Shown: one piece after another, positions 4,058 to 44,703 of the stretch
Position numbering within the stretch: position 1 is the first letter of the stretch
Layout: the number at the start of each line of letters is the position of its first letter
IMG/VR virus record: IMGVR_UViG_3300020049_012431
Span: 14,735 to 78,734 of that record
Source: a virus
Lineage: Duplodnaviria; Caudoviricetes
Strand: one strand, 5' to 3'
Length of the DNA: 64,000 nt
Program-made: the position numbers and the translations under genes
Notes under the pieces: generated by a model
What the model was told of the DNA's origin: nothing
The model's input: the letters and a program-made list of their open reading frames with translations, nothing else
Databases searched by the model: none

Positions 4058-5081
4058 AGAACCATTATTGAATTTTCCTGATACCCGATACATGGGAAGC
4101 AAAAGAAAACTGCTGCCATCACTACAAGGAATTTTTAAGCAATTAGATTTCCGCACAAGTCTTGATGCTTTTTCTGGAACTTCATCAGTAGCATATCTAT
4201 TGAAATCGCTCGGTAAATCCGTAGATACAAATGATTATTTGATGTTCAACTATTTCATCGCCAAAGCACTCATTGAAAACAATGGAACGATTTTGACTGA
4301 TGAGGAAGTAGAAGAAATTTGCACATTCAATGATGACAAAAATAACTTCATTGAAAAGAATTTTTCAAATATTTATTATTCAAAAAAAGACTGCAAATGG
4401 CTTGATTCTGCATGGGCAAACATTGAGTTCATAACCGACCCATACAAGAAAGCTATTGCGCTAACTGCATTGTGCAGAGCTTGTATTAAGAAAAGACCCA
4501 GAGGGATTTTTACTTATACTGGCATGAGATACGATGATGGCAGAAAAGATTTAAAAACGGAACTTGCCGACCATTTTGCAGAAGCCGTAAAAATGGTGAA
4601 TCGCTCTGTCATCACCAGTAAAAAGAAATGCATTGCCTACAACCAAGATATAATGAAGTTTAAGAAATCAAACTATGACTTGGTATATCTTGATCCACCT
4701 TACTTTTCGCTAAAATCTGATAATGAGTACTCTCGTAGGTATCACTTTCTTGAAGGCCTTGTTTCTTATTGGTCTCATGTGGAAATCAATCAAGAGACGA
4801 AGACAAAGAAATTTGACCGAATTGAATCTGATTTCACTCATCGGAGCAAAATTGTTCCTGCGTTTGAATCGCTGTTTGATAAATTTTCTGACAGCCAAAT
4901 TGTGATGTCTTACTCTTCAAACTGTTTTCCAGATGCAACTATTTTGAAAAGTCTTTTAAAGAATGCTGGCAAGGCTGTTGAGCTTATTGAGATTGATTAT
5001 GTTTATTCAGTAGGAACGCACTCACACAAGAAAGATAATGAATCTAATCGTGTTAAGGAATACGTCTTTTTAGGACTGTAG
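4011..5081 (+). CDS. DNA adenine methyltransferase (D12/Dam-like class), orphan
   Basis: RYMGSKRKLL, DAFSGTSSV (SAM binding), DLVYLDPPY (catalytic); no cognate endonuclease next to it. Confidence 0.9.
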   Translation: MEVRLSNLAENLLVHEEPLLNFPDTRYMGSKRKLLPSLQGIFKQLDFRTSLDAFSGTSSVAYLLKSLGKSVDTNDYLMFNYFIAKALIENNGTILTDEEVEEICTFNDDKNNFIEKNFSNIYYSKKDCKWLDSAWANIEFITDPYKKAIALTALCRACIKKRPRGIFTYTGMRYDDGRKDLKTELADHFAEAVKMVNRSVITSKKKCIAYNQDIMKFKKSNYDLVYLDPPYFSLKSDNEYSRRYHFLEGLVSYWSHVEINQETKTKKFDRIESDFTHRSKIVPAFESLFDKFSDSQIVMSYSSNCFPDATILKSLLKNAGKAVELIEIDYVYSVGTHSHKKDNESNRVKEYVFLGL

Positions 5082-5179
5082 CCTTTCCTTGCCACGATTC
5101 CAAATTGTGAATTTCAAATTTACTTAGGCGAGCTATTTCAAATAGCCGTCTTTTGCGAAAGTAAGAATGAGGTCGAAGA

Positions 5180-5524
5180 GTGAAAAGCGAGCAATTTGCA
5201 GAAGAAATGCTAGAAGAGATTGAAAACTTTAAAGATTTAACCAAAGAAGAACTTCCAGTAATCGCAAAAGAATATTTACAGTATAAAATAGTGAATTCTA
5301 TTCTTGGTATTATATCAGGAAGCGTCTTGTTAATCCTATCAGCTATTGCGATTATAATTTGTGTAAATAATGGTAGGCCCGTGGGTATAACAATAGGATT
5401 GGGGGTTGGGTTTACGGGATTTTCTATAACAGTTTTAAGTATAGACACACTTCTCCGCGTTATTTTACAACCTCACCGCATGGCTATTGACTCAATAATA
5501 TCATTAATAGGTAAAACAAAATGA
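5180..5524 (+). CDS. hypothetical membrane protein
   Basis: Two transmembrane segments. Confidence 0.6.
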   Translation: MKSEQFAEEMLEEIENFKDLTKEELPVIAKEYLQYKIVNSILGIISGSVLLILSAIAIIICVNNGRPVGITIGLGVGFTGFSITVLSIDTLLRVILQPHRMAIDSIISLIGKTK

Positions 5525-5528
5525 AATA

Positions 5529-5557
5529 TTGACAAAGACTAAAAATTATATTATTCT
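5529..5557 (+). promoter_or_regulatory. sigma70-type promoter
   Basis: TTGACA-17 nt-TATTCT. Confidence 0.75.
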
Positions 5558-5562
5558 GTATT

Positions 5563-5763
5563 TGTAAAAGCGATGTGGAAGCTGAACTTTCTACAGCGGG
5601 ATGTAGACGAAAGACAAATCCAGTTAGTTCTGGAGACACATTGACGGGAGGCCAAAACCCCACCTCATCGGTCAGCGCCTTAAATGTGCGCAGGAGCAAT
5701 CCAAGACAACGAAAAGGGTCGGTCGGCAACGGGGTACGCCAGAGTCGCGTCTGGCCTTTTACA
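5563..5763 (+). ncRNA. candidate structured non-coding RNA (about 200 nt)
   Basis: GC-rich island after the promoter; ends pair (TGTAAAAG/CTTTTACA); several internal hairpins. Confidence 0.65.
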
Positions 5764-5809
5764 CAACCTGAGTATGTTGTAAAACTACTCACCTTATAAT
5801 TGGAGCAAT

Positions 5810-6019
5810 GTGAAAACATCATTCTATATAAATACCGACATTGAGCAAGCTCTAGACTTAACTGGCCTAGCTTTAGACGAATTAGAATCTGTTGTTGGTA
5901 GATTTGCCGCTCACTCAAGACGGTCCGGGCTTTTGCGCGGTAAAATAGTGGAATATTCTTGCGGTAAAATTGAAATTAGAACTTGTTTTGGTAATAAATT
6001 ATTGTGGAGTAATAAATAA
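5810..6019 (+). CDS. hypothetical protein
   Basis: GGAG RBS, GTG start. Confidence 0.45.
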   Translation: MKTSFYINTDIEQALDLTGLALDELESVVGRFAAHSRRSGLLRGKIVEYSCGKIEIRTCFGNKLLWSNK

Positions 6020-11875: not shown

Positions 11876-14343
11876 TGGAACAGTTTGTTGTAGACACAAA
11901 AGAAGCGTTTCAGGATGTACTGTCTTGCCTACAAGACGGTACAGAACTAAAACATGTATCAGAAAATGTATACAAAATGAGTGGCGCAACATTAGAATTT
12001 AATAAGGAATACGAAGACCAGCTTCAGCTTCATGATATCATTTATGGTATAAATAAAGAATCTAATATTGTTAATATCTCAATTAAAAATGATCTTGTTT
12101 ATATTTTTAAAGAAACCGTCGCTGGTGTCCACTATAAGGTGTTACCATACAAACACTGGGTATTAGCTAAATCAAAATTAAATGAATCGTTTAAACCTCT
12201 ATTCGGCAAACAATCGTATTCCTGGTATAAAGAATATAGCTATGAGCAATTTGAAATAAATATACAACCTAAAATGTATAAGATGGGATTGTATACAATA
12301 CACAATCCTGCTGAAAATTTTATGACACGTCAGGGATTTACATACTTCAAAGATACAAAAAGTATCGATGTGTCGGTTGTTTCTTTTGATATAGAGACAA
12401 CAGGGTTAGATCCTAAAGCCAAGGATGCTCAGGTATTATTAATAACGAATACATATAGAAAAGGCACAACGCAATTAAGCAAGACCTTTTCTGTTGCTGA
12501 TTATAAAAATGATGGCGATATGATACTAGACTGGTGCTCTTGGGTTGTTGAGATGGACCCGAGTGTCATGCTTGGTCATAATATTGTTATGTTTGATATT
12601 CCTTATATCAAAGGACGAATTAATTCTTATAAAAAAGAACTACCAATTGGTCGTATGCAGGAAGAATTAGTCATTGAAGATAAACCAAGAGAATTACGAA
12701 AAGATGGTAGCCAGTCGTATACATACCATAGAGTAAACTGTTTCGGCAGAGAAGTAGTTGATACTTTCTTTTTGGCAATTAAAGCCGATACAGCACGCAA
12801 ATATGAATCATATGGTTTGAAAAGTATCATTAAACAAGAAGGTTTAGAGGAAGCAGATAGACAACAATACGATGCTGCGTCTATTGGTAAAAACTGGCAT
12901 ATTCCAGAAGAGCGAGCAAAAATTATTGCCTATGCGGAGGCAGACAGCCGCGACCCAATTAAATTGTATGATCTAATGATAGCACCATTCTTCTACCTAA
13001 CACCATATATACCAAAACCATTTCAGATAATGATGGAAAGCGCAACAGGAAGTCAGATTAATTCCCTCATGGTGAGAAGCTACTTACAAAAGAATATGTC
13101 TGTAGCTGAGGGCAGCCCTTCGGTAGAATTCGAGGGTGCGATTAGCTTCGGCAATACTGGTATTTATAAAAATGTGTATAAAGTTGACGTGGCATCACTG
13201 TATCCAAGTATTATGCGTCATTACAAAATATATCCAGAAAAAAAGGATTTTAATTTAAATTTCGCGAAAATGTTAGAATATTTTACAGTAGAGAGATTAA
13301 AGAATAAAGTATTAGCTAAAGACACCGGTGATAGGTATTATGATGATTTACAAAACTCACAAAAAAATCTGGTGAATTCCTGCTACGGTTTTTTAGGGGC
13401 CAAGGGTCTCAATTATAATTTTCCTAGTGGTGCTGCCGCTGTTACTAAGTACGGTAGAGAAGTAGTCACAAAAGCTGTTGAATGGGCAACTGGTCACACA
13501 TTAGAGCACAAGGTAAAACATATTCGAAATGAAGGCAAAGAAAATGAAGAGATAGAAAGAGAATGGGTTATGGGTAAAAAAATTGGAGAAGGAAAAGGAT
13601 ACACTATATCAAATTGTGATACAGATAGTATTTCTTTTACTTGCGGTAAAGACCTAACCCTAGAAGATAGAAAAAATATTATAGTGGATATAAACTCGCA
13701 CTTTCCGGAAATGATTAGATTCGAGGATGACGGGTACTATTCTGTTGTTTGTATTTTAAAAGCTAAGAATTATATTTTATTTGATGGAAAGAAAATTAAA
13801 CTTAAAGGCAGTTCAATTAGAGACCAGAAAAAAGAGCCGGGATTGAAAGAGATGATGGACAAAATGATCAATTGTATCATATTTGATAATCCTCAAAACC
13901 TGATTAATATATACCACGATTATATTAGAGAGACAATGAATGTTCAAGATATTAGACGCTGGTGCGCAAAAAAGACAATTACCAAAGCGATTCTTAATTG
14001 TGCACATGACCCTGAAGCGCGAATGAATGAAGTAAAGGTATATGATGCTGTAAAGGATATTCCTGGGCTGCAAGAGGGCGATAAGGTATACCTGTACCCA
14101 ACAATACTTGGTACTGAGATAATTCCTGGTGGTGTATCGTTAAAAACCGGAAAACCATTAAAAGATAAGAGTAAACTAGTCACAGGACTTAAATTAGTTG
14201 AAAAATGGGTTGGTGATGAGGATAAAGATAAGTTAATTCAACGAGTTGTAGATACTGTAGATATTTTTGCTAATGTTATTGACATAAATCAATTTGTAGA
14301 CTACACTCTAAATAAGAATAAAAATCTCTTGACTTCTTTATAA
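11875..14343 (+). CDS. DNA polymerase, family B
   Basis: Exonuclease motifs SFDIETTG and GHNIVMFD; polymerase motifs DVASLYPSI, KNLVNSCYG, NCDTDS. Confidence 0.95.
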   Translation: MEQFVVDTKEAFQDVLSCLQDGTELKHVSENVYKMSGATLEFNKEYEDQLQLHDIIYGINKESNIVNISIKNDLVYIFKETVAGVHYKVLPYKHWVLAKSKLNESFKPLFGKQSYSWYKEYSYEQFEINIQPKMYKMGLYTIHNPAENFMTRQGFTYFKDTKSIDVSVVSFDIETTGLDPKAKDAQVLLITNTYRKGTTQLSKTFSVADYKNDGDMILDWCSWVVEMDPSVMLGHNIVMFDIPYIKGRINSYKKELPIGRMQEELVIEDKPRELRKDGSQSYTYHRVNCFGREVVDTFFLAIKADTARKYESYGLKSIIKQEGLEEADRQQYDAASIGKNWHIPEERAKIIAYAEADSRDPIKLYDLMIAPFFYLTPYIPKPFQIMMESATGSQINSLMVRSYLQKNMSVAEGSPSVEFEGAISFGNTGIYKNVYKVDVASLYPSIMRHYKIYPEKKDFNLNFAKMLEYFTVERLKNKVLAKDTGDRYYDDLQNSQKNLVNSCYGFLGAKGLNYNFPSGAAAVTKYGREVVTKAVEWATGHTLEHKVKHIRNEGKENEEIEREWVMGKKIGEGKGYTISNCDTDSISFTCGKDLTLEDRKNIIVDINSHFPEMIRFEDDGYYSVVCILKAKNYILFDGKKIKLKGSSIRDQKKEPGLKEMMDKMINCIIFDNPQNLINIYHDYIRETMNVQDIRRWCAKKTITKAILNCAHDPEARMNEVKVYDAVKDIPGLQEGDKVYLYPTILGTEIIPGGVSLKTGKPLKDKSKLVTGLKLVEKWVGDEDKDKLIQRVVDTVDIFANVIDINQFVDYTLNKNKNLLTSL

Positions 14344-14525: not shown

Positions 14526-16058
14526 ATGCGAGATATTTTAAGCGTATCAAAAGCTTTTGTTAAAAAACATAAGACATACCCATCGATGCCTGATATGGCT
14601 AAGCTTGGTTTCAGTAGAGACCAGGTTCGTAGTGTGTATGGTAATCTTGAGGGACTTCATGATGAATTATTCATTCATTGCCAAGATGAATTTATTGATC
14701 TTTCTCGAGAATCGGTAAACAATCTTAATACAAAAAAGTATAAAACATTTATTATTACTACGGCACTCACTGGGTCTACTGTACAAAAAAATGTTGTGTC
14801 AAGTATACATACCTTCTGTAAAAAAAATAAAGCGGCACCAATTGTTTTGGTCGCTAAGGGTTCAAGTAAATTAGCACAAACACTGGATGCGTCTCTTCGT
14901 GGAATGCACATTCTTACACAAGACACAGAACTTAATAGTAATTTAAAAATCGTCGGGGTTTTCCAATCAGGATCAAAGACTGACCCTACTAGTGGCGGAA
15001 TTAGTCGTACAGGAAATAGGGATAGCAGCATAATACTTGCTTCACCTAAACAGCGTTTATTCTATACAGCAACAGGTATTGATAAATTACCCCATGCAAC
15101 GATGGGTACTGGAGCTATCACTGAGCCGCAATATGATAAACGTAATATGTCTGGTTATGTTGCAAACCATGACCATGTGATGGGTGCTATTGTTGTTGAA
15201 ATCGTTGATGAAAATCTATTTCATTTTAGACAAGTACAGTTTGATAGACATGGCGGGTTTGTAGATCTTGGTGTATACTACTGTGGATCTAAATCTAAAT
15301 CTATGGCACCAATTGCTATGGTGTTGGGTGATTGGCATGCTGGCGAGAGTGACCCTGTTGTTGTACAGAGCACTATAGCATTAACCAAAGCATTAAAGAT
15401 ACCTACGTGGGTATTACACGATACATTTGATGGAACAAGCATATCACATCACGACATGGGAAAACAAATCTCATTAACAAAAAAAGCAGAAGAAAATCAA
15501 TTAAATTTAGAAAAAGAATTACGCACTTATTCTGCTGACATTGAAATGATAAGTAAATTAGTTAAGAATGTTGTTGTAGTTAAAAGTAATCACGACGAAC
15601 ACTTGGAGCGATATTTAGATGAGGGCAGATTCATAAAAGATCCGCAGAATATGAAGCTCGCAATTGAACTTGCCGGTCAGATGATAAATAGCACGAACAT
15701 CCTAAAATATGCTGTGGGTAAGTTCGCTAAAGCTAAAAACAACATAGTATGGTTATCTAGAGGGCAATCATTACGAATTGCTGGTATTGAATGTGGTTTA
15801 CATGGTGATGTTGGACCGAACGGAAGCAGAGGAAGTCTTGCCGCTTTTGAAAAATCGTATGGAAACAGTATTGTCGGTCACAGTCATACACCAGGCATTC
15901 TACGTGGGGCATGGTGTGTTGGGACAACAACAGCAACAAGTCCTGACTATGGTCGTGGTGGTGCGAGTAGCTGGTTAAATACGCATTGCTTGGTGTATTC
16001 AAATGGACATCGCCAATTAGTTAATTGCATTAATGGGAAGTTCTCTAAATTAATATGA
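14526..16058 (+). CDS. large calcineurin-like metallophosphoesterase
   Basis: GDWH, HDTFDG, SNHDE, LHGD, GHSH motifs. Confidence 0.75.
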   Translation: MRDILSVSKAFVKKHKTYPSMPDMAKLGFSRDQVRSVYGNLEGLHDELFIHCQDEFIDLSRESVNNLNTKKYKTFIITTALTGSTVQKNVVSSIHTFCKKNKAAPIVLVAKGSSKLAQTLDASLRGMHILTQDTELNSNLKIVGVFQSGSKTDPTSGGISRTGNRDSSIILASPKQRLFYTATGIDKLPHATMGTGAITEPQYDKRNMSGYVANHDHVMGAIVVEIVDENLFHFRQVQFDRHGGFVDLGVYYCGSKSKSMAPIAMVLGDWHAGESDPVVVQSTIALTKALKIPTWVLHDTFDGTSISHHDMGKQISLTKKAEENQLNLEKELRTYSADIEMISKLVKNVVVVKSNHDEHLERYLDEGRFIKDPQNMKLAIELAGQMINSTNILKYAVGKFAKAKNNIVWLSRGQSLRIAGIECGLHGDVGPNGSRGSLAAFEKSYGNSIVGHSHTPGILRGAWCVGTTTATSPDYGRGGASSWLNTHCLVYSNGHRQLVNCINGKFSKLI

Positions 16059-29400: not shown

Positions 29401-29919
29401 TCCCCAAACAATACGATAAGCAATTTTACTATAGCCTTCAAAAAAACCTTCATTGACGTAATCAACCACGGCTGTTCCACCAAGGGCCTTAATCCCACCC
29501 GCAGTACTTATTTTTGCTGAAGATAAAAGACTCGCACTTTTTGCGGCAATTTTACGTATCCCGGTGCTTGTAGTTAAGAACAGATTTCCGTTTTGTTCGA
29601 TACTCTTCAATCGAAGCCCAGACTCAGTTTCGATAAAAGAACCGGTGAATGCTGTATATGTTCCACTACCATTGTCATATGCCAACGCATTTGAATAATG
29701 TGCTATTGTTCTATTTTTATATAAAAGAAGTTGTTTTGCTACATCTGATGTAGTAGAACCGATTGTTCCATACTGTTTAAGTCCACGACGAGACTCTAAT
29801 GTACTTAATCTATCTATGTTTACATTTTCGGCGATAGATAAGGCACCTTCAGGAATTTCACTTAGAAACGAATTATAAGTGTGTAGTCCTTTGAATCGTA
29901 ACATGCTTGTAGTAGCCAT
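26482..29919 (-). CDS. tail tubular protein B / head-stabilisation-like protein
   Basis: 1145 aa; GALSIAENVNID, R.YFSK...PEAVP repeats; follows the adaptor gene. Confidence 0.65.
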   Translation of the reverse strand: MATTSMLRFKGLHTYNSFLSEIPEGALSIAENVNIDRLSTLESRRGLKQYGTIGSTTSDVAKQLLLYKNRTIAHYSNALAYDNGSGTYTAFTGSFIETESGLRLKSIEQNGNLFLTTSTGIRKIAAKSASLLSSAKISTAGGIKALGGTAVVDYVNEGFFEGYSKIAYRIVWGTKDINNNLILGSPSTPIEVVNQNSVSGTATVTFAVPQNITTDYFYRIYRTGLFTATTFADVQYLTVDDEYRLVYEDGYISGTEITINDIVPEDFRQGGAPLYTNESSGEGILQSNEAPPFAKDIAAYKNSAFFANTRTTYRQLIDMVGLGDFERYGASGDTIDITSITYLAPTTTIVFSAATTIVAGQKIVITNSGSATLDGIRTVATSVGNTITITADGTGASATNASVYPSSLIITKNTTRQYYFVGRPEIHSFTFPAYYAGIDQTYFLINAASDAVKYTIYFHDTAGPIVEPNTVETAGTLLIKVDVSSADTTGTLIADKVMVAINDASYDFVIDGTTATRTISTANSGSATNPVITTLSPVTGLTTTAIQDGDGENGATNYVRLSSLASPSQRIDDTARSLCKIVSADTSGEVNAYYLSGPQDAPGKMNFESRILDTTPFTLQSNVGQDFSPSITSPLTATNEEKANRVYFSKTSQPEAVPIVNYFDVGPQDSAILRILGLRDSLFIIKEDGIYRLTGENPTNFFVTLFDGSCNVSAPDTCVVIDNNIFGLSSQGVVRISETGIDIISQPVQDAFNLYTSPRYTYYKTASFGAAYVEDYAYICWLPKNATDTTGTIAYRFSTKTETWTTWKKVGNAKCAIVNTSTNKLFVGPDDINIVEIERKDLKRTDFADREYSLDLLSNSISGTTISVPSLLNVEPGDVLSQTQYVTASLVDRLANKFVLDAGVPNTVGNDNKNYYRNLTINPGDNLQDVLGSVITQLNSDIGTAYQTLYSLDAITFQTEYNNLINLLNADTTLLHTNYSLSVNPVIYEVFITSIDKKNISVTVDLMMPLVVGSLTHYKSISCNATLAPYFFGDPAILKHVRDATVRFATASLTRGTVGYNTDLSANFDDIEFTMEGTGNWGTWVFDSIAWGGEGTGRPFRTLIPKNKQRCTYIRTRFLHKAAFDEFRILGISYSFEGNSERAYR

Positions 29920-30524
29920 TATATACCGACCTTAGTTAAAATATAACCTTTACATGGTCTATTTTTTTTTATTGCAATACTTATTGTCGAAATATTACAT
30001 TTAATTTGCTTTGCCGCATCCGTCATTGATTCATATACATTACCATGTTGATCGATTAATTTAATTTTTTCTTTTCCATGGCCAGTTAAATTATTTTCTT
30101 TTATTCTATTCTTGATATTTATATCTAGAGTATCCCACCATTTTTTTGTACCAATAGATATTTTTTTTCTAAAATTATCATCAATAATTCGGTTTTTAAC
30201 GCCATCACCGCCATTAGTACAATTTAATAATGGCGAATTGATGCTTTTAAAATAAGAAATCCAATAAATCTCGGCATCCTGTAAAAATTTTTTATCTTCA
30301 AATTCTTGTAAAACAATAATTTTTGGTACTTGATTCTTGCGGGCTAATTTTTTTATCCATCTATAAATAGGGTAGTGGGCTATTTTTTTTGTAGTATACC
30401 GTTTGAAATGCTCTAATGGTCTAAGTAATCCCTTGCTAGATAGTCCTATATATCTAATTTCATAAGTATTAGGATCTTGGAGTGCATAAATAATATTAAA
30501 TTTTAACATTGAGGTTGTTGCCAC
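29919..30524 (-). mobile_element. free-standing GIY-YIG homing endonuclease with NUMOD-type C-terminus
   Basis: IIYALQDP..RYIG, R..EH, AEIYWI, LLNCTNGGDG; C-terminal YESMTDAAKQ helix-turn-helix. Confidence 0.85.
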
Positions 30525-41645: not shown

Positions 41646-41915
41646 ATGAACGACATCGAAATAGAAGCTAAAGTTGTTGCAGAACTGGAAATAGCATTTC
41701 AATATCTTGGTGCACACATCGAGGCATTTAAACTCGATGATGAATGTATCACCGTCACTGTAGTATCTGATGTGTTTTCTATGATAAGACAACCAATTCG
41801 GCGCGGAATGCTCCGAGACATATTATATCACCATCATTTGCCAACAGTGATACAATATAGGATTTATTATAATCCGATAACAACAAGCGAGTGGGATAAT
41901 CTACATGGCCAGTAA
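41646..41915 (+). CDS. BolA-like protein
   Basis: VTVVSDVFS....IRR.ML.DIL...T.SEW matches the BolA pattern. Confidence 0.5.
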   Translation: MNDIEIEAKVVAELEIAFQYLGAHIEAFKLDDECITVTVVSDVFSMIRQPIRRGMLRDILYHHHLPTVIQYRIYYNPITTSEWDNLHGQ

Positions 41916-41919
41916 TATT

Positions 41920-43155
41920 TTAATCCTTAGGAAACGATAATACGTCATATTTTAAACATTCTTTATAATGTTTATTCTGTCTTTTATCACCATTAAAATA
42001 TATATATCTATGTTTTTGTTTTCTATCAATGTATTTAAAATTTTCCGAGGATTTGTCTATATCGCTAGAAGCCAATGTCATAGCATGTCTACTATCACCA
42101 AGACTCATATCTTTTCGTTTTTCCGTAATACCTAAGTATTTAAAGTTACATGCCTGATAAATTATACCAGAATGCCCTGCTTCTATCTCGGCAAATGTCA
42201 CTATAATATTTTTTTCTATTAATTTTGAATTTAAACATCTAGCAATAAACCAACTTTCAGTGTTAGTCGGCAAAAAATCAAGAACCGCCAAACGATTTAA
42301 TTCAATTACTTGATTAGAAAACTCATTACCACAAATACTCCGCAATCCGGGACTAAATGGTGTGTGAAAAGTACAGACACCACACAAAACACCATTAGGT
42401 AAAAATAATCCAAAAGTATATTCACTAGGTGCTTTTCTTCTTAGATAGTGGTTTTCTAGTAGAAAGTCTTGTCCTAAATTATAATCTATAAGCTTTACAG
42501 TTAATTCGGAATTAAAATTAAATCGATCTCTTTTTAAATTCCTATTCTCAATTTTCTCTCTAGGAAATAGATTTCTATAATTTTGTAGTTTATACAAAGC
42601 ATCCTGTGTTTTTGCTAAAGAAAGGGGTACTATATGGTCAATATCCCAATAATCACCATAGTTATCCCAGGACATTTCTGGTGTAAAGTTTTTTTCTAAA
42701 AATACCTTAAGTTGGTCATAATCATCTAAACCAATATAATCATGGAATTTTGAACTTTTTTTCCAACTTTTATTGTCTAAAGCATACCACAATCTATTTC
42801 TAATATTTCTCGTTATTTTAAATACAGGGTCAGACTCTAATCGTCTCTTTTGATAGGATCTTCTTGCTGTATTTACTTTTTCTTTATTTTTATAATAATA
42901 ATCTAAGCTTTTTTGTTTAATTTCTGTAGCTTTTTTCTCATATCGAGTTTTTTCTTTATTTAAAATAACATCTCTGTTGTTACTATAATACTCTTTACGC
43001 CTAGCGCTTATCTGGTCTTTTTTTTGTATCCTATGTTCCTGTCCTTGTTTTTTACGACAAGGCTTACACTCACTTCTATAACCAGTGGGTGACTCTTTTC
43101 TAGGGTGGAATTCGGCTTCTGATTTTTCTTCTAAACATTTTTTACATTTAATCAT
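41920..43155 (-). CDS. HNH endonuclease fused to a Mom-like (GNAT) DNA-modification domain
   Basis: N-terminal CxxC...CxxC; SWDNYG.YWDIDHIVPLS..NL.P..K.EN (HNH); C-half ENHYL, IELNRL, TESWFIARCL, IVTFAE...GH.GIIYQACNF.YLG (Mom); start moved to ATG 43155. Confidence 0.8.
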   Translation of the reverse strand: MIKCKKCLEEKSEAEFHPRKESPTGYRSECKPCRKKQGQEHRIQKKDQISARRKEYYSNNRDVILNKEKTRYEKKATEIKQKSLDYYYKNKEKVNTARRSYQKRRLESDPVFKITRNIRNRLWYALDNKSWKKSSKFHDYIGLDDYDQLKVFLEKNFTPEMSWDNYGDYWDIDHIVPLSLAKTQDALYKLQNYRNLFPREKIENRNLKRDRFNFNSELTVKLIDYNLGQDFLLENHYLRRKAPSEYTFGLFLPNGVLCGVCTFHTPFSPGLRSICGNEFSNQVIELNRLAVLDFLPTNTESWFIARCLNSKLIEKNIIVTFAEIEAGHSGIIYQACNFKYLGITEKRKDMSLGDSRHAMTLASSDIDKSSENFKYIDRKQKHRYIYFNGDKRQNKHYKECLKYDVLSFPKD

Positions 43156-43161
43156 GCTTAT

Positions 43162-43190
43162 ATCATGACATAGATGTTTGGTCTTGTCAA
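43162..43190 (-). promoter_or_regulatory. sigma70-type promoter, probably leaderless
   Basis: TTGACA-17 (with TG)-CATGAT, then 6 nt to ATG 43155. Confidence 0.6.
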
Positions 43191-43208
43191 GAAAAATACA
43201 CAATAAAT

Positions 43209-43243
43209 AAAAAAAGGCAGGGGACTATTCATCCTCTGCCTTT
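43209..43243 (-). terminator. intrinsic terminator after the major capsid gene
   Basis: GGCAGAGG...CCCTGCC followed by a T run. Confidence 0.8.
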
Positions 43244-43268: not shown

Positions 43269-44336
43269 TTACGAAGCTTTAAGATTACTGATAAGCACTG
43301 AGCGACCTGGACGTGCGCAAAAAATTGCCTGGTCTGTGTAACATCTCAACTCATATCCAGCGTGATCTTCTAGTTCACGGAAGAAGTTACCTTCTTGACC
43401 TGGACGTTTGAAAGTAACGTCAGTAGAACCAACGCGTACCCAGTCTTCCAAGCAAAGAACATAAGCAAAACCTTCTTTTACATAGATAGAAGGAACGATT
43501 TCAACCATACCATTTTGTGAATGGAATTTGATTGATTTAGATCCGTTCTCAGCTTGTGCAGAAGAGAATGAGCTGTCATACATACGTAAAGCAGCTTGCT
43601 CAGTTAACAAATCATCCCAGTGTGAAGGATTGACAAGAACCATTACGTCAGTGTCAAGACCTTTTTCAACACCTTTGCTGATTGCTTGTTGCAAGATTGC
43701 AAAAGACAATACAGAAGTGGATGCTGGAGCAAAAGAGCTTCCTTTCCACAAATCATAGCTAGATGCACTGATACCGAAAAGAGTACCTGTGTTAGACAAG
43801 ATTTTATGGATACCAGCAAATTCTTTACCAGCAGCACCTTTGTGCAAGATACGGTCATTAGCAACAACTGCTGCTGCTACGGCTGCATCTGCTGCAGAAA
43901 GAGTGATAGTTTTGCTGTTCAAATCTACAGAAGCAACAGTAGCAGAAGCGCCACCACGTAATGTAGTAAGAGTTGGATCATAGATCTCAATTGGCATACC
44001 AACTGCACCTGACCAGATACCTGGAGCAAATTCAGAAGATTTGATTGTGATTACAAGACCAACCGCAATAGCATTAGCCAATCCATACTCAAGTTGTCCA
44101 TAGATAGCTTCGATTTCAAGCTTCTTTTGGATACTGTCAAGCATAGAACCAACCAAGTACTTAGTAGCTTCTTCAAACGCGCGCTCTCCTGGACCCATAG
44201 ATCTAGAAGCTTGAGCGTAAGGCATAGCCGAACGTAATACTAGCTGGTAGCCTTTAACTACAGCATCTTTAATTTGTCCCGCAACTGGCGGATTCAATGC
44301 AAATGCACCTTCAGTGTCATCTGCGAACGTAACACC
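43269..44336 (-). CDS. major capsid protein, exon 2
   Basis: GVTFADD...; position between scaffold and terminator; in frame with exon 1 after intron removal. Confidence 0.85.
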   Translation of the reverse strand, partial: GVTFADDTEGAFALNPPVAGQIKDAVVKGYQLVLRSAMPYAQASRSMGPGERAFEEATKYLVGSMLDSIQKKLEIEAIYGQLEYGLANAIAVGLVITIKSSEFAPGIWSGAVGMPIEIYDPTLTTLRGGASATVASVDLNSKTITLSAADAAVAAAVVANDRILHKGAAGKEFAGIHKILSNTGTLFGISASSYDLWKGSSFAPASTSVLSFAILQQAISKGVEKGLDTDVMVLVNPSHWDDLLTEQAALRMYDSSFSSAQAENGSKSIKFHSQNGMVEIVPSIYVKEGFAYVLCLEDWVRVGSTDVTFKRPGQEGNFFRELEDHAGYELRCYTDQAIFCARPGRSVLISNLKAS

Positions 44337-44538
44337 CATTTTGTTACTCACTTTTCAGTGGGAGAAACCTCTTCGGATTTCTCTCAACCCCTTCTTTTGT
44401 TATAGGGTTGTTCAGACTATCGCATCCCTTTCGGGTCCTCTCACTTAGTCGTTCACGCTGCTTTCGCTTGCGCCCTGTTGTCCGCTTCCGGAGTTCCAAG
44501 TCAATCAGAGAAGATTTATACAGCCCCTAGTTAAATTG
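44337..44538 (-). ncRNA. group I self-splicing intron, 202 nt, no ORF
   Basis: P1 CAGCCU/GGGCUG with U.G at the splice site; P3 UCUUCUC/GAGAGGA; P7 GACUA/UAGUC; P8, P9, P9.1, P9.2 hairpins; terminal AACAAAAUG. Confidence 0.92.
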
Positions 44539-44703
44539 AGGCTGGTGGTACGCGTTGCCCGGTTGTTTGTCTTTGCTAACGAATTTAATACGTTGCAAAA
44601 CTTTTTTTCCGTCTGGGATCAATCTCTTAAGATTGTCCTCATAAGTTTCTTTGAAAAGTCCATTCAGCGACGCTGCTGAATTACTTCCTGAAAAATCTGC
44701 CAT
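44539..44703 (-). CDS. major capsid protein, exon 1 (55 codons)
   Basis: AAGGAG RBS; MADFSGSNSAASLNGLFKETYEDNLKRLIPDG...GNAYHQP; missed by the ORF track. Confidence 0.9.

Follow-up and report, generated by a model that had tools for sequence, protein, structure and literature searches.

A probable HNH-type nuclease joined to a Mom-type DNA modification domain in a variable slot beside a phage capsid gene

Mom-family domains fused to restriction endonuclease (REase)-fold endonucleases have been predicted computationally in jumbo phages, with the proposal that momylation guards the phage DNA and the nuclease attacks host or superinfecting DNA (Iyer, Anantharaman, Krishnan, Burroughs, & Aravind, 2021, Viruses 13:63; PMC7824862). 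Here we analyze a 64,000-nucleotide stretch of viral DNA (Duplodnaviria; Caudoviricetes; IMG/VR record IMGVR_UViG_3300020049_012431, positions 14,735 to 78,734; hereafter the window), which belongs to a 78.7-kb record estimated to be 94% complete, and in which a single gene joins a probable HNH-type domain to a complete Mom-type domain in one polypeptide. As in the jumbo-phage proteins, likewise known from sequence, a Mom-family GNAT and an endonuclease share one chain, and the same logic may be proposed; unlike them, the nuclease here is of a zinc-ribbon/His-Me-finger (HNH-type) kind, the carriers are of ~80 kb, and the gene occupies an apparently mobile slot with its own predicted leaderless promoter. 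The initial annotation knew of no characterized fusion of this kind. This stands insofar as our literature search found no paper describing an HNH–Mom fusion, but the same logic had already been put forward for REase-fold partners (PMC7824862). What is new is that the partner is of HNH type, that the slot is mobile, that split and reversed forms exist, and that the leaderless expression unit is conserved.

We know of no Mom–nuclease fusion that has ever been tested experimentally, and, to our knowledge, Mom is the only enzyme that uses a charged tRNA to hypermodify DNA. The phage Mu enzyme (PDB 8BV8; Silva et al., 2026, Nat Commun; Karambelkar et al., 2020, NAR) takes glycine from Gly-tRNA(Gly) and attaches it to N6 of adenine in double-stranded DNA (dsDNA), after which a rearrangement yields 6-NcmdA; R111, S124, and R151 are indispensable to it, and H58, Y59, D149, and Y159 also matter (PMC13219725). 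The fusion protein described here shares with Mu Mom the GNAT fold, a full-length Pfam Mom match, and equivalents of H58, Y59, R111, S124, and Y159. Unlike Mu Mom, to which it is ~24% identical, it has Glu in place of D149, does not conserve R151, lacks the dimer residue W48, and is fused to a 215-residue nuclease module. Its promoter is of a simple constitutive type, whereas Mu mom is under layered Dam, OxyR, C, and Com control.

Two further kinds of described system bear comparison. Type IIC/IIG single-chain restriction–modification enzymes hold a nuclease and a protective modification activity in one polypeptide, and the fusion resembles them in that a nuclease and a predicted protective DNA-modifying domain share one chain; it differs in that the predicted chemistry is tRNA-dependent glycyl transfer rather than S-adenosylmethionine-dependent methylation, and in being phage-encoded rather than cell-encoded. 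Free-standing homing endonuclease genes include the seg and mob genes of T4 and those of I-HmuI-type HNH enzymes, and the self-immunity of homing endonucleases is a matter of target-site differences, with no covalent mark. The fusion gene is like such phage genes in lying between conserved genes, in its presence and absence among relatives, in having its own expression signals, and in its predicted H-N-N type active site. It is unlike them in carrying a DNA-modifying domain; we know of no free-standing homing endonuclease that does.

Domain composition of the fusion protein

The minus strand of the window is a single open frame from 41920 to 43203, with no interruption. Within it, the coding sequence of 411 aa runs from an ATG at 43155 to a stop codon at 41920–41922. 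An alternative upstream TTG at 43203 would yield 427 aa, but the ATG is favored because the relatives in an alignment of 18 full-length sequences begin M-K-x-C-x-x-C. The one uninterrupted 411-aa open reading frame (ORF) described in the initial annotation is thus confirmed. An AlphaFold2 model of the full protein was built from the 18 relatives (mean predicted local distance difference test score, pLDDT, 90.4), and a second model covers the N-half alone (pLDDT 94). The features of the locus are as follows.

41920..43155, minus strand: coding sequence of the fusion protein, 411 aa (start backed by the alignment of 18 full-length relatives)
43039..43155, minus strand: Cys4 zinc ribbon, residues 1–39, with C4, C7, C30, and C33 (conserved Cys and Hpy99I ribbon match)
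42772..43065, minus strand: long basic helical hairpins, residues 31–128, a presumed DNA-binding scaffold (AlphaFold2 pLDDT >90)
42526..42669, minus strand: predicted beta-beta-alpha-Me nuclease core (HNH-type, D-H...N...N), residues 163–210 (fold model and conservation)
41926..42507, minus strand: Mom-family GNAT domain, residues 217–410 (Pfam PF25680 and Foldseek match to 8BV8)
43162..43190, minus strand: sigma-70-type promoter, TTGACA at 43190–43185 and CATGAT at 43167–43162 (10/12 consensus matches)
43209..43240, minus strand: intrinsic terminator of the capsid gene, hairpin plus 7-U run (-18.5 kcal/mol, z -2.3)

The identity of the C-half is clear. Residues 217–410 match the whole of the Pfam Mom profile PF25680 (positions 1–202 of 202; E 8.5e-30; 104.4 bits, against a curated cut-off of 27.1 bits), and the PHROG family "Mom-like DNA modification protein" is matched at E 6.5e-42. 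The best PDB matches in Foldseek are chains B and A of 8BV8, that is, Mu Mom (E 3.5e-12, target-normalized TM 0.71), followed by generic GNATs. The description of this half as a complete Mom-like domain is borne out by these results, as is that of its ELNRL and GH motifs, in which E285, L286, R288, and H328 are invariant. When the Mu residues are placed on the fusion through the 8BV8 alignment, H58 corresponds to H236, Y59 to Y237, R111 to R288, S124 to S301, and Y159 to Y333. In a set of 74 domains, fused and stand-alone, no variation occurs at the positions of R111 and Y159 or at H328 (aligned to Mu R154), and very little at those of S124, H58, and Y59. A segment at ~345–377, similar in length and equivalent in place to the helix-turn-helix-like insertion of Mu Mom (~175–209, needed for activity), lies inside the Pfam match but is modeled at a pLDDT of only 63–69. 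The fused Mom domain looks no more degenerate than its stand-alone relatives, and it would be expected to form N6-carbamoylmethyl-adenine from Gly-tRNA(Gly) on dsDNA. The phage also has a second, stand-alone Mom gene outside the window (195 aa, intact; PF25680 E 1.9e-28; L002 1519–2106, genome ~12864–13451), the product of which shares only ~26–30% identity with the fused domain. This gene lies between a matrixin-like M10 peptidase gene and a subtilase-like ORF.

The N-half begins with the zinc finger that had been noticed from the sequence: C4, C7, C30, and C33 are conserved among relatives, and the predicted ribbon superposes on that of Hpy99I (VIA-align Z 5.4, root-mean-square deviation 1.7 Å, 38 residues). 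The Hpy99I ribbon was also the sole match, at E 0.22, in PDB sequence searches made with the N-half alone and with a 35-sequence profile. The long basic helix, likewise described earlier, reappears as residues 31–128, which are helical in the AlphaFold2 models (pLDDT 90–94) and for which no informative structural match was found. In the model of the N-half, predicted strands at 170–174 and 196–200 and a helix at 201–210 carry D173-H174, N195, and N204, an arrangement that fits the beta-beta-alpha-metal topology, which has a His where strand 1 ends, an Asn in the hairpin, and either Asn or His in the helix. H174 and N195 occur in 149/149 family members and D173 in 147/149; N204 occurs in 146/149, with His, the classic H-N-H form, in two others. 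The D-H, N, and N positions are thus invariant or nearly so across 27 fused and more than 120 stand-alone proteins. Residues 1–215 match PHROG endonuclease VII (E 1e-8) and endonuclease (E 7e-9) families, and weak Pfam HNH (PF01844) matches occur in 9/35 stand-alone relatives (best E 0.001). A feature search of the ESM Atlas placed HNH-bearing clusters at ranks 14 and 17 only (scores 0.83–0.84), which serves as a lead only, and an NCBIfam search gave nothing useful.

The assignment of this half as an HNH-type nuclease follows from the motif, the predicted fold, and the weak profile matches, and is probable. The module is one of a very large phage family of zinc-ribbon/His-Me-finger endonucleases that stand alone and behave as free-standing homing endonuclease genes do; this phage has a single copy of it. 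Among characterized beta-beta-alpha-Me nucleases, those of the Hpy99I/T4 endonuclease VII type are similar in having a Cys4 ribbon beside a D-H...N...N core and in the PHROG endonuclease VII matches; unlike them, the fusion has ~100 residues of helical hairpins between ribbon and core, and the similarity outside the ribbon falls below significance.

Recurrence, expression signals, and genomic slot

An identical fusion protein occurs on 4 contigs, and 18 full-length relatives at 35–56% identity occupy the same locus in independent JGI, Logan, ENA, and NCBI assemblies. Because the architecture recurs at one locus in independent assemblies, the sequence evidence indicates that the fusion is not an assembly chimera. 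An exhaustive search with domain parsing found at least 27 database representatives of the nuclease–Mom order, so the architecture proposed in the initial annotation is indeed found in other phages; among GenBank phage records, the fusion appears in 0/50,697. One candidate there, the huge-phage record LR756502.1, appeared to cover residues 1–312 and proved to be just a 183-aa stand-alone nuclease. The fused state is retained down to ~35% identity with both active sites intact.

Nuclease and Mom modules also meet in other arrangements (records are cited here by our L and P handles). P0057 carries the reverse, Mom–nuclease order (E 3e-24 to the N-half), and in L014 a 270-aa nuclease gene overlaps a 264-aa Mom gene by 14 nt, with order and locus as in the fusion. 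P0174 joins the nuclease module to a DNA methyltransferase, and P0075 consists of Mom followed by a zinc ribbon alone, without the nuclease core. In L005, the gene directly upstream of the fusion (4607–6004) has a 465-aa product that contains DUF7487 repeats and gives a weak match of REase_MTES_1575/Vsr-like type. An 80%-identical copy of its product is joined in frame to a Mom half in P0010, where the HNH module is missing; P0010 thus combines a REase_MTES_1575-containing protein with a genuine Mom domain. A Mom-like tail considered for the L005 gene itself was rejected (hhalign probability 3.7%). A GIY-YIG identity for the middle part of P0067 and P0142, which came only from motifs compared with those of I-TevI and which Pfam, PDB, and GenBank searches did not confirm, is not counted as evidence. 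On sequence evidence, the pairing of a nuclease with a modification enzyme is recurrent: nuclease–Mom, Mom–nuclease, split operon, REase plus Mom, and nuclease plus methyltransferase.

The initial annotation had also given the gene a sigma70-type leaderless promoter located after the capsid terminator. Both parts are supported. The hairpin and U-run downstream of the capsid stop codon precede a promoter that reads TTGACA, a 17-nt spacer with TG, CATGAT, 6 nt, and ATG; no Shine–Dalgarno sequence is present before the fusion ATG, and since the ATG lies 6 nt past the -10 box, the mRNA would be leaderless. Promoter-like sites as such are not enriched over shuffles in the window (9 found, 11 expected). 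The geometry from terminator through promoter to ATG is kept in L007 and L009, where an equivalent hairpin and T-run are followed by an exact TTGACA in matching order and spacing to the ATG, in genes whose fusion proteins are only 37–40% identical to that of the window. In L003, where the fusion is inverted, the gene is instead translationally coupled to the gene upstream. Where the fusion is co-directional with the capsid gene, there is therefore good support for the prediction that it is expressed from a leaderless promoter of its own past the capsid terminator.

The major capsid gene lies 114 nt upstream of the fusion gene; on the other side come a small cluster of plus-strand genes and then an M15 peptidase gene. 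The fusion gene converges with the plus-strand gene at 41646–41915, the stop codons being separated by 4 nt (41913–41922), and no terminator-like hairpin was found between the two. In L007 and L009 the fusion is co-directional with the capsid gene, and in L003 and L005 it is on the other strand and closes the plus-strand cluster. The slot holds only a stand-alone nuclease of the N-half family in L011–L013 and L015, two nuclease genes and a Mom gene in L014, and neither nuclease nor Mom in L016 and L017. Between the window and its nearest relative, L003, the capsid protein is 91% identical and the two halves of the fusion are 51% and 58% identical (54% overall), with the gene inverted. The slot from capsid to M15 peptidase is hypervariable and polymorphic in both presence and orientation. 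Free-standing homing endonuclease genes behave in this way, and mobility is suggested by the slot variability, the orientation flips, and a divergence discordant with that of the flanks. Elsewhere in the window, a 200-aa ORF of the tail-gene block (29919–30521, minus strand) scores 17.6 bits with the GIY-YIG profile, below the cut-off of 22.6 (E 0.0047), and may be another homing-type nuclease.

The capsid-gene intron

The neighboring capsid gene is itself interrupted, by a 202-nt ORF-less element at 44337–44538 (minus strand) between exon 1 (44539–44703) and exon 2 (43269–44336). The element is absent from the relatives L003, L013, and L017. Its P1 hairpin places a U.G pair at the 5' splice site, its last nucleotide is G, and its GACUA/UAGUC core is one that we take to resemble P7 of group I introns. 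The core 19-mer recurs across IMG/VR, in more than 119 contigs, and in a 45-sequence consensus fold 22/38 pairs show compensatory changes; Rfam 15 does not recognize the element even at E up to 1. These features suggest a group I-like intron. The P1 pairing and terminal G suggest a spliced product reading ...YHQP/GVTFADD, in which case the mature capsid would be without 7 codons (VVL-G/A-MEH) that L003, L013, and L017 have precisely at the junction; L003 8300–8560 offers the intron-less comparison for the 44336/44539 junction.

Comparable elements occur in other contexts. In L018 (MW202674.1, 2440–2680), an intron of the same family, with a core that is 77% identical, interrupts the P22-type coat gene in an unrelated podovirus; that gene is annotated as two coding sequence pieces, and a spurious "hypothetical protein" is called inside the intron. 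In L005 (7274–9391) an 885-nt insert encoding a 253-aa NUMOD3-containing ORF breaks the related capsid gene at the position seen in the window; it is probably an endonuclease-bearing form of an intron at this capsid site. The contig L046 contains three copies of the intron core within 1.7 kb (5762, 6963, and 7404), and this suggests that one gene, or a set of neighboring genes, holds several introns. Occupancy of the slot downstream of the capsid gene does not track the capsid intron.

Explanations for the pairing and their significance

The reading that we prefer, tentatively, is that the locus is a mobile cassette of a nuclease and protective momylation. The Mom domain would mark the phage's own DNA with N6-carbamoylmethyl-adenine, and the mark would protect that DNA against host restriction enzymes as well as the linked nuclease. 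The nuclease would nick or cut unmarked DNA of co-infecting relatives or of the host, and repair from the cassette-bearing genome would spread the cassette into the capsid-downstream slot. With a sigma-70-type promoter of its own and a leaderless start beyond the capsid terminator, the gene could be expressed by host RNA polymerase independently of the late capsid transcript. This model unites a restriction–modification-type pairing with mobility, in the form of a homing-type nuclease made immune through linked momylation. A functional link of the restriction–modification type is argued from the pairing of Mom with more than one nuclease fold, in both orders and in an operon, and from the joining of the nuclease module to a methyltransferase as well; the conservation of both catalytic sets in the fused state lends the coupling indirect support. 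The domain identities, the conservation of catalytic residues, the recurrence of the architecture, the variability of the slot, and the conserved promoter layout are directly established. Both enzymatic activities and the target of the nuclease are predicted, and the blocking of the nuclease by momylation is, above all, the conjectural step of the model.

Several observations weigh against this reading. The HNH identity of the N-half is statistically unsecured: Pfam gave no HNH match for the fusion protein at E up to 1, Foldseek of the N-half was not significant (E >2.9, though nearly all of its top rows are beta-beta-alpha-Me nucleases), and VIA-align reached a Z of only 4.7–5.4, with Hpy99I at 5.4 (ribbon only) and caspase-activated DNase at 4.7 (residues 97–212). 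It is because these searches yielded no significant match that the HNH label is only probable, and of the HNH motif claimed in the initial annotation, the catalytic residues on a predicted strand-strand-helix stand, whereas a significant family or fold match does not accompany them. In the Mom half, the position of D149 is Glu (E323) here and Asp in most relatives, and that of R151 is also Glu (E325); the latter is variable in fused and stand-alone Moms alike and is therefore not a family-wide feature. Since a separate stand-alone Mom is present, the fused Mom would not be needed for self-protection from host restriction. Co-occurrence and fusion can also arise from selfish insertion beside a resident gene. 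Finally, repeated independent fusions are not demonstrated by the domain trees, which are too poorly resolved: the Mom tree forces at least 9 label changes, though some of its "Mom-only" rows are fragments, and the nuclease tree permits as few as 2.

The two readings first offered for the gene, a restriction–modification-like element and a homing endonuclease with an anti-restriction cargo, are each partly supported and stay the two leading explanations. It is somewhat unlikely, though a serious contender, that a selfish free-standing homing endonuclease became fused to Mom without mechanistic coupling, in which case immunity would come from site disruption and Mom would be anti-restriction cargo, of general use to the recipient phage, that aids persistence of the element; on the same somewhat unlikely account, the nuclease would recognize a long site in the empty slot or in a nearby allele. 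The presence and absence of the gene, its orientation flips, and the same-family stand-alone nucleases at the site in L011–L013 and L015 all agree with such an origin, as do the two nuclease genes in L014, the contrast of 54% with 91% identity, and the other mobile elements of the genome, namely the capsid intron and the sub-threshold GIY-YIG gene. The insertion of an HNH element in frame into a phage methylase gene is, moreover, documented (PMC11855218). Uncoupled homing does not account, however, for Mom being paired with more than one nuclease fold and in either domain order, or for the joining of the nuclease module to an unrelated DNA-modifying enzyme; the persistence of the fused state to ~35% identity with both active sites intact also speaks against it. 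The mobile cassette with protective momylation could also take a stronger form, which we consider unlikely: a homing element whose self-immunity is chemical rather than positional, in which an HNH homing nuclease and a tRNA-dependent adenine-hypermodifying domain together invade and persist without disrupting the target site and exclude unmarked competitor phages. Just as doubtful is the corollary that such an element is in effect a phage-borne, non-methyl restriction–modification system that spreads by homing and swaps specificities fast; a quick swap is suggested by the 54% (fusion) against 91% (capsid) identity to the nearest relative.

Other accounts deny the N-half its nuclease role or assign it a different target. 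The N-half might be a DNA-binding or targeting module, the protein then being a Mom with extended or altered specificity that complements the stand-alone Mom. This is improbable. The Mom plus zinc ribbon of P0075, which has no nuclease core, the absence of a significant HNH family match, and the second, distant Mom paralog of this phage would all suit it, and multiple Moms per phage are known, with five in PA5oct (PMC7824862). Against it, every one of the fused proteins examined keeps the D-H, N, and N residues, just as the stand-alone members have them. Inactivated nuclease domains normally lose catalytic residues. Collaborative homing, in which the nuclease would cut capsid alleles that lack the ORF-less group I-like intron, at the site where the intron inserts, and so mobilize both, draws on the proximity of the intron-bearing capsid gene, and cyanophage psbA is a known example of a free-standing nuclease beside an ORF-less intron. 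It is very improbable here: L003, L007, L009, and L014 pair the fusion or the gene pair with an uninterrupted capsid gene, L011–L013 and L015 have the nuclease alone and no intron, and the intron of L005 has its own NUMOD3 ORF. That the protein is a chimera of assembly, or a read-through artifact of two separate genes, might be thought from the split two-gene form in L014; with identical copies on 4 contigs, 18 relatives at the same locus in independent assemblies, and an AlphaFold2 model that is continuous and confident across the domain junction, we give this almost no credence.

Whichever of these explanations applies, the family provides a compact single-gene system, one that can be expressed by itself, for asking if a non-methyl adenine mark serves a linked nuclease as a "self" signal, and natural controls are at hand in the split operon, the reverse-order fusion, the stand-alone halves, and the REase variant. 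If the two activities are not coupled, the locus would still be a clear case of a homing nuclease dragging an anti-restriction gene between phages. If they are coupled, the logic of restriction–modification would extend to tRNA-dependent chemistry, and the coupling would explain how some free-standing homing nucleases spare their own genome.

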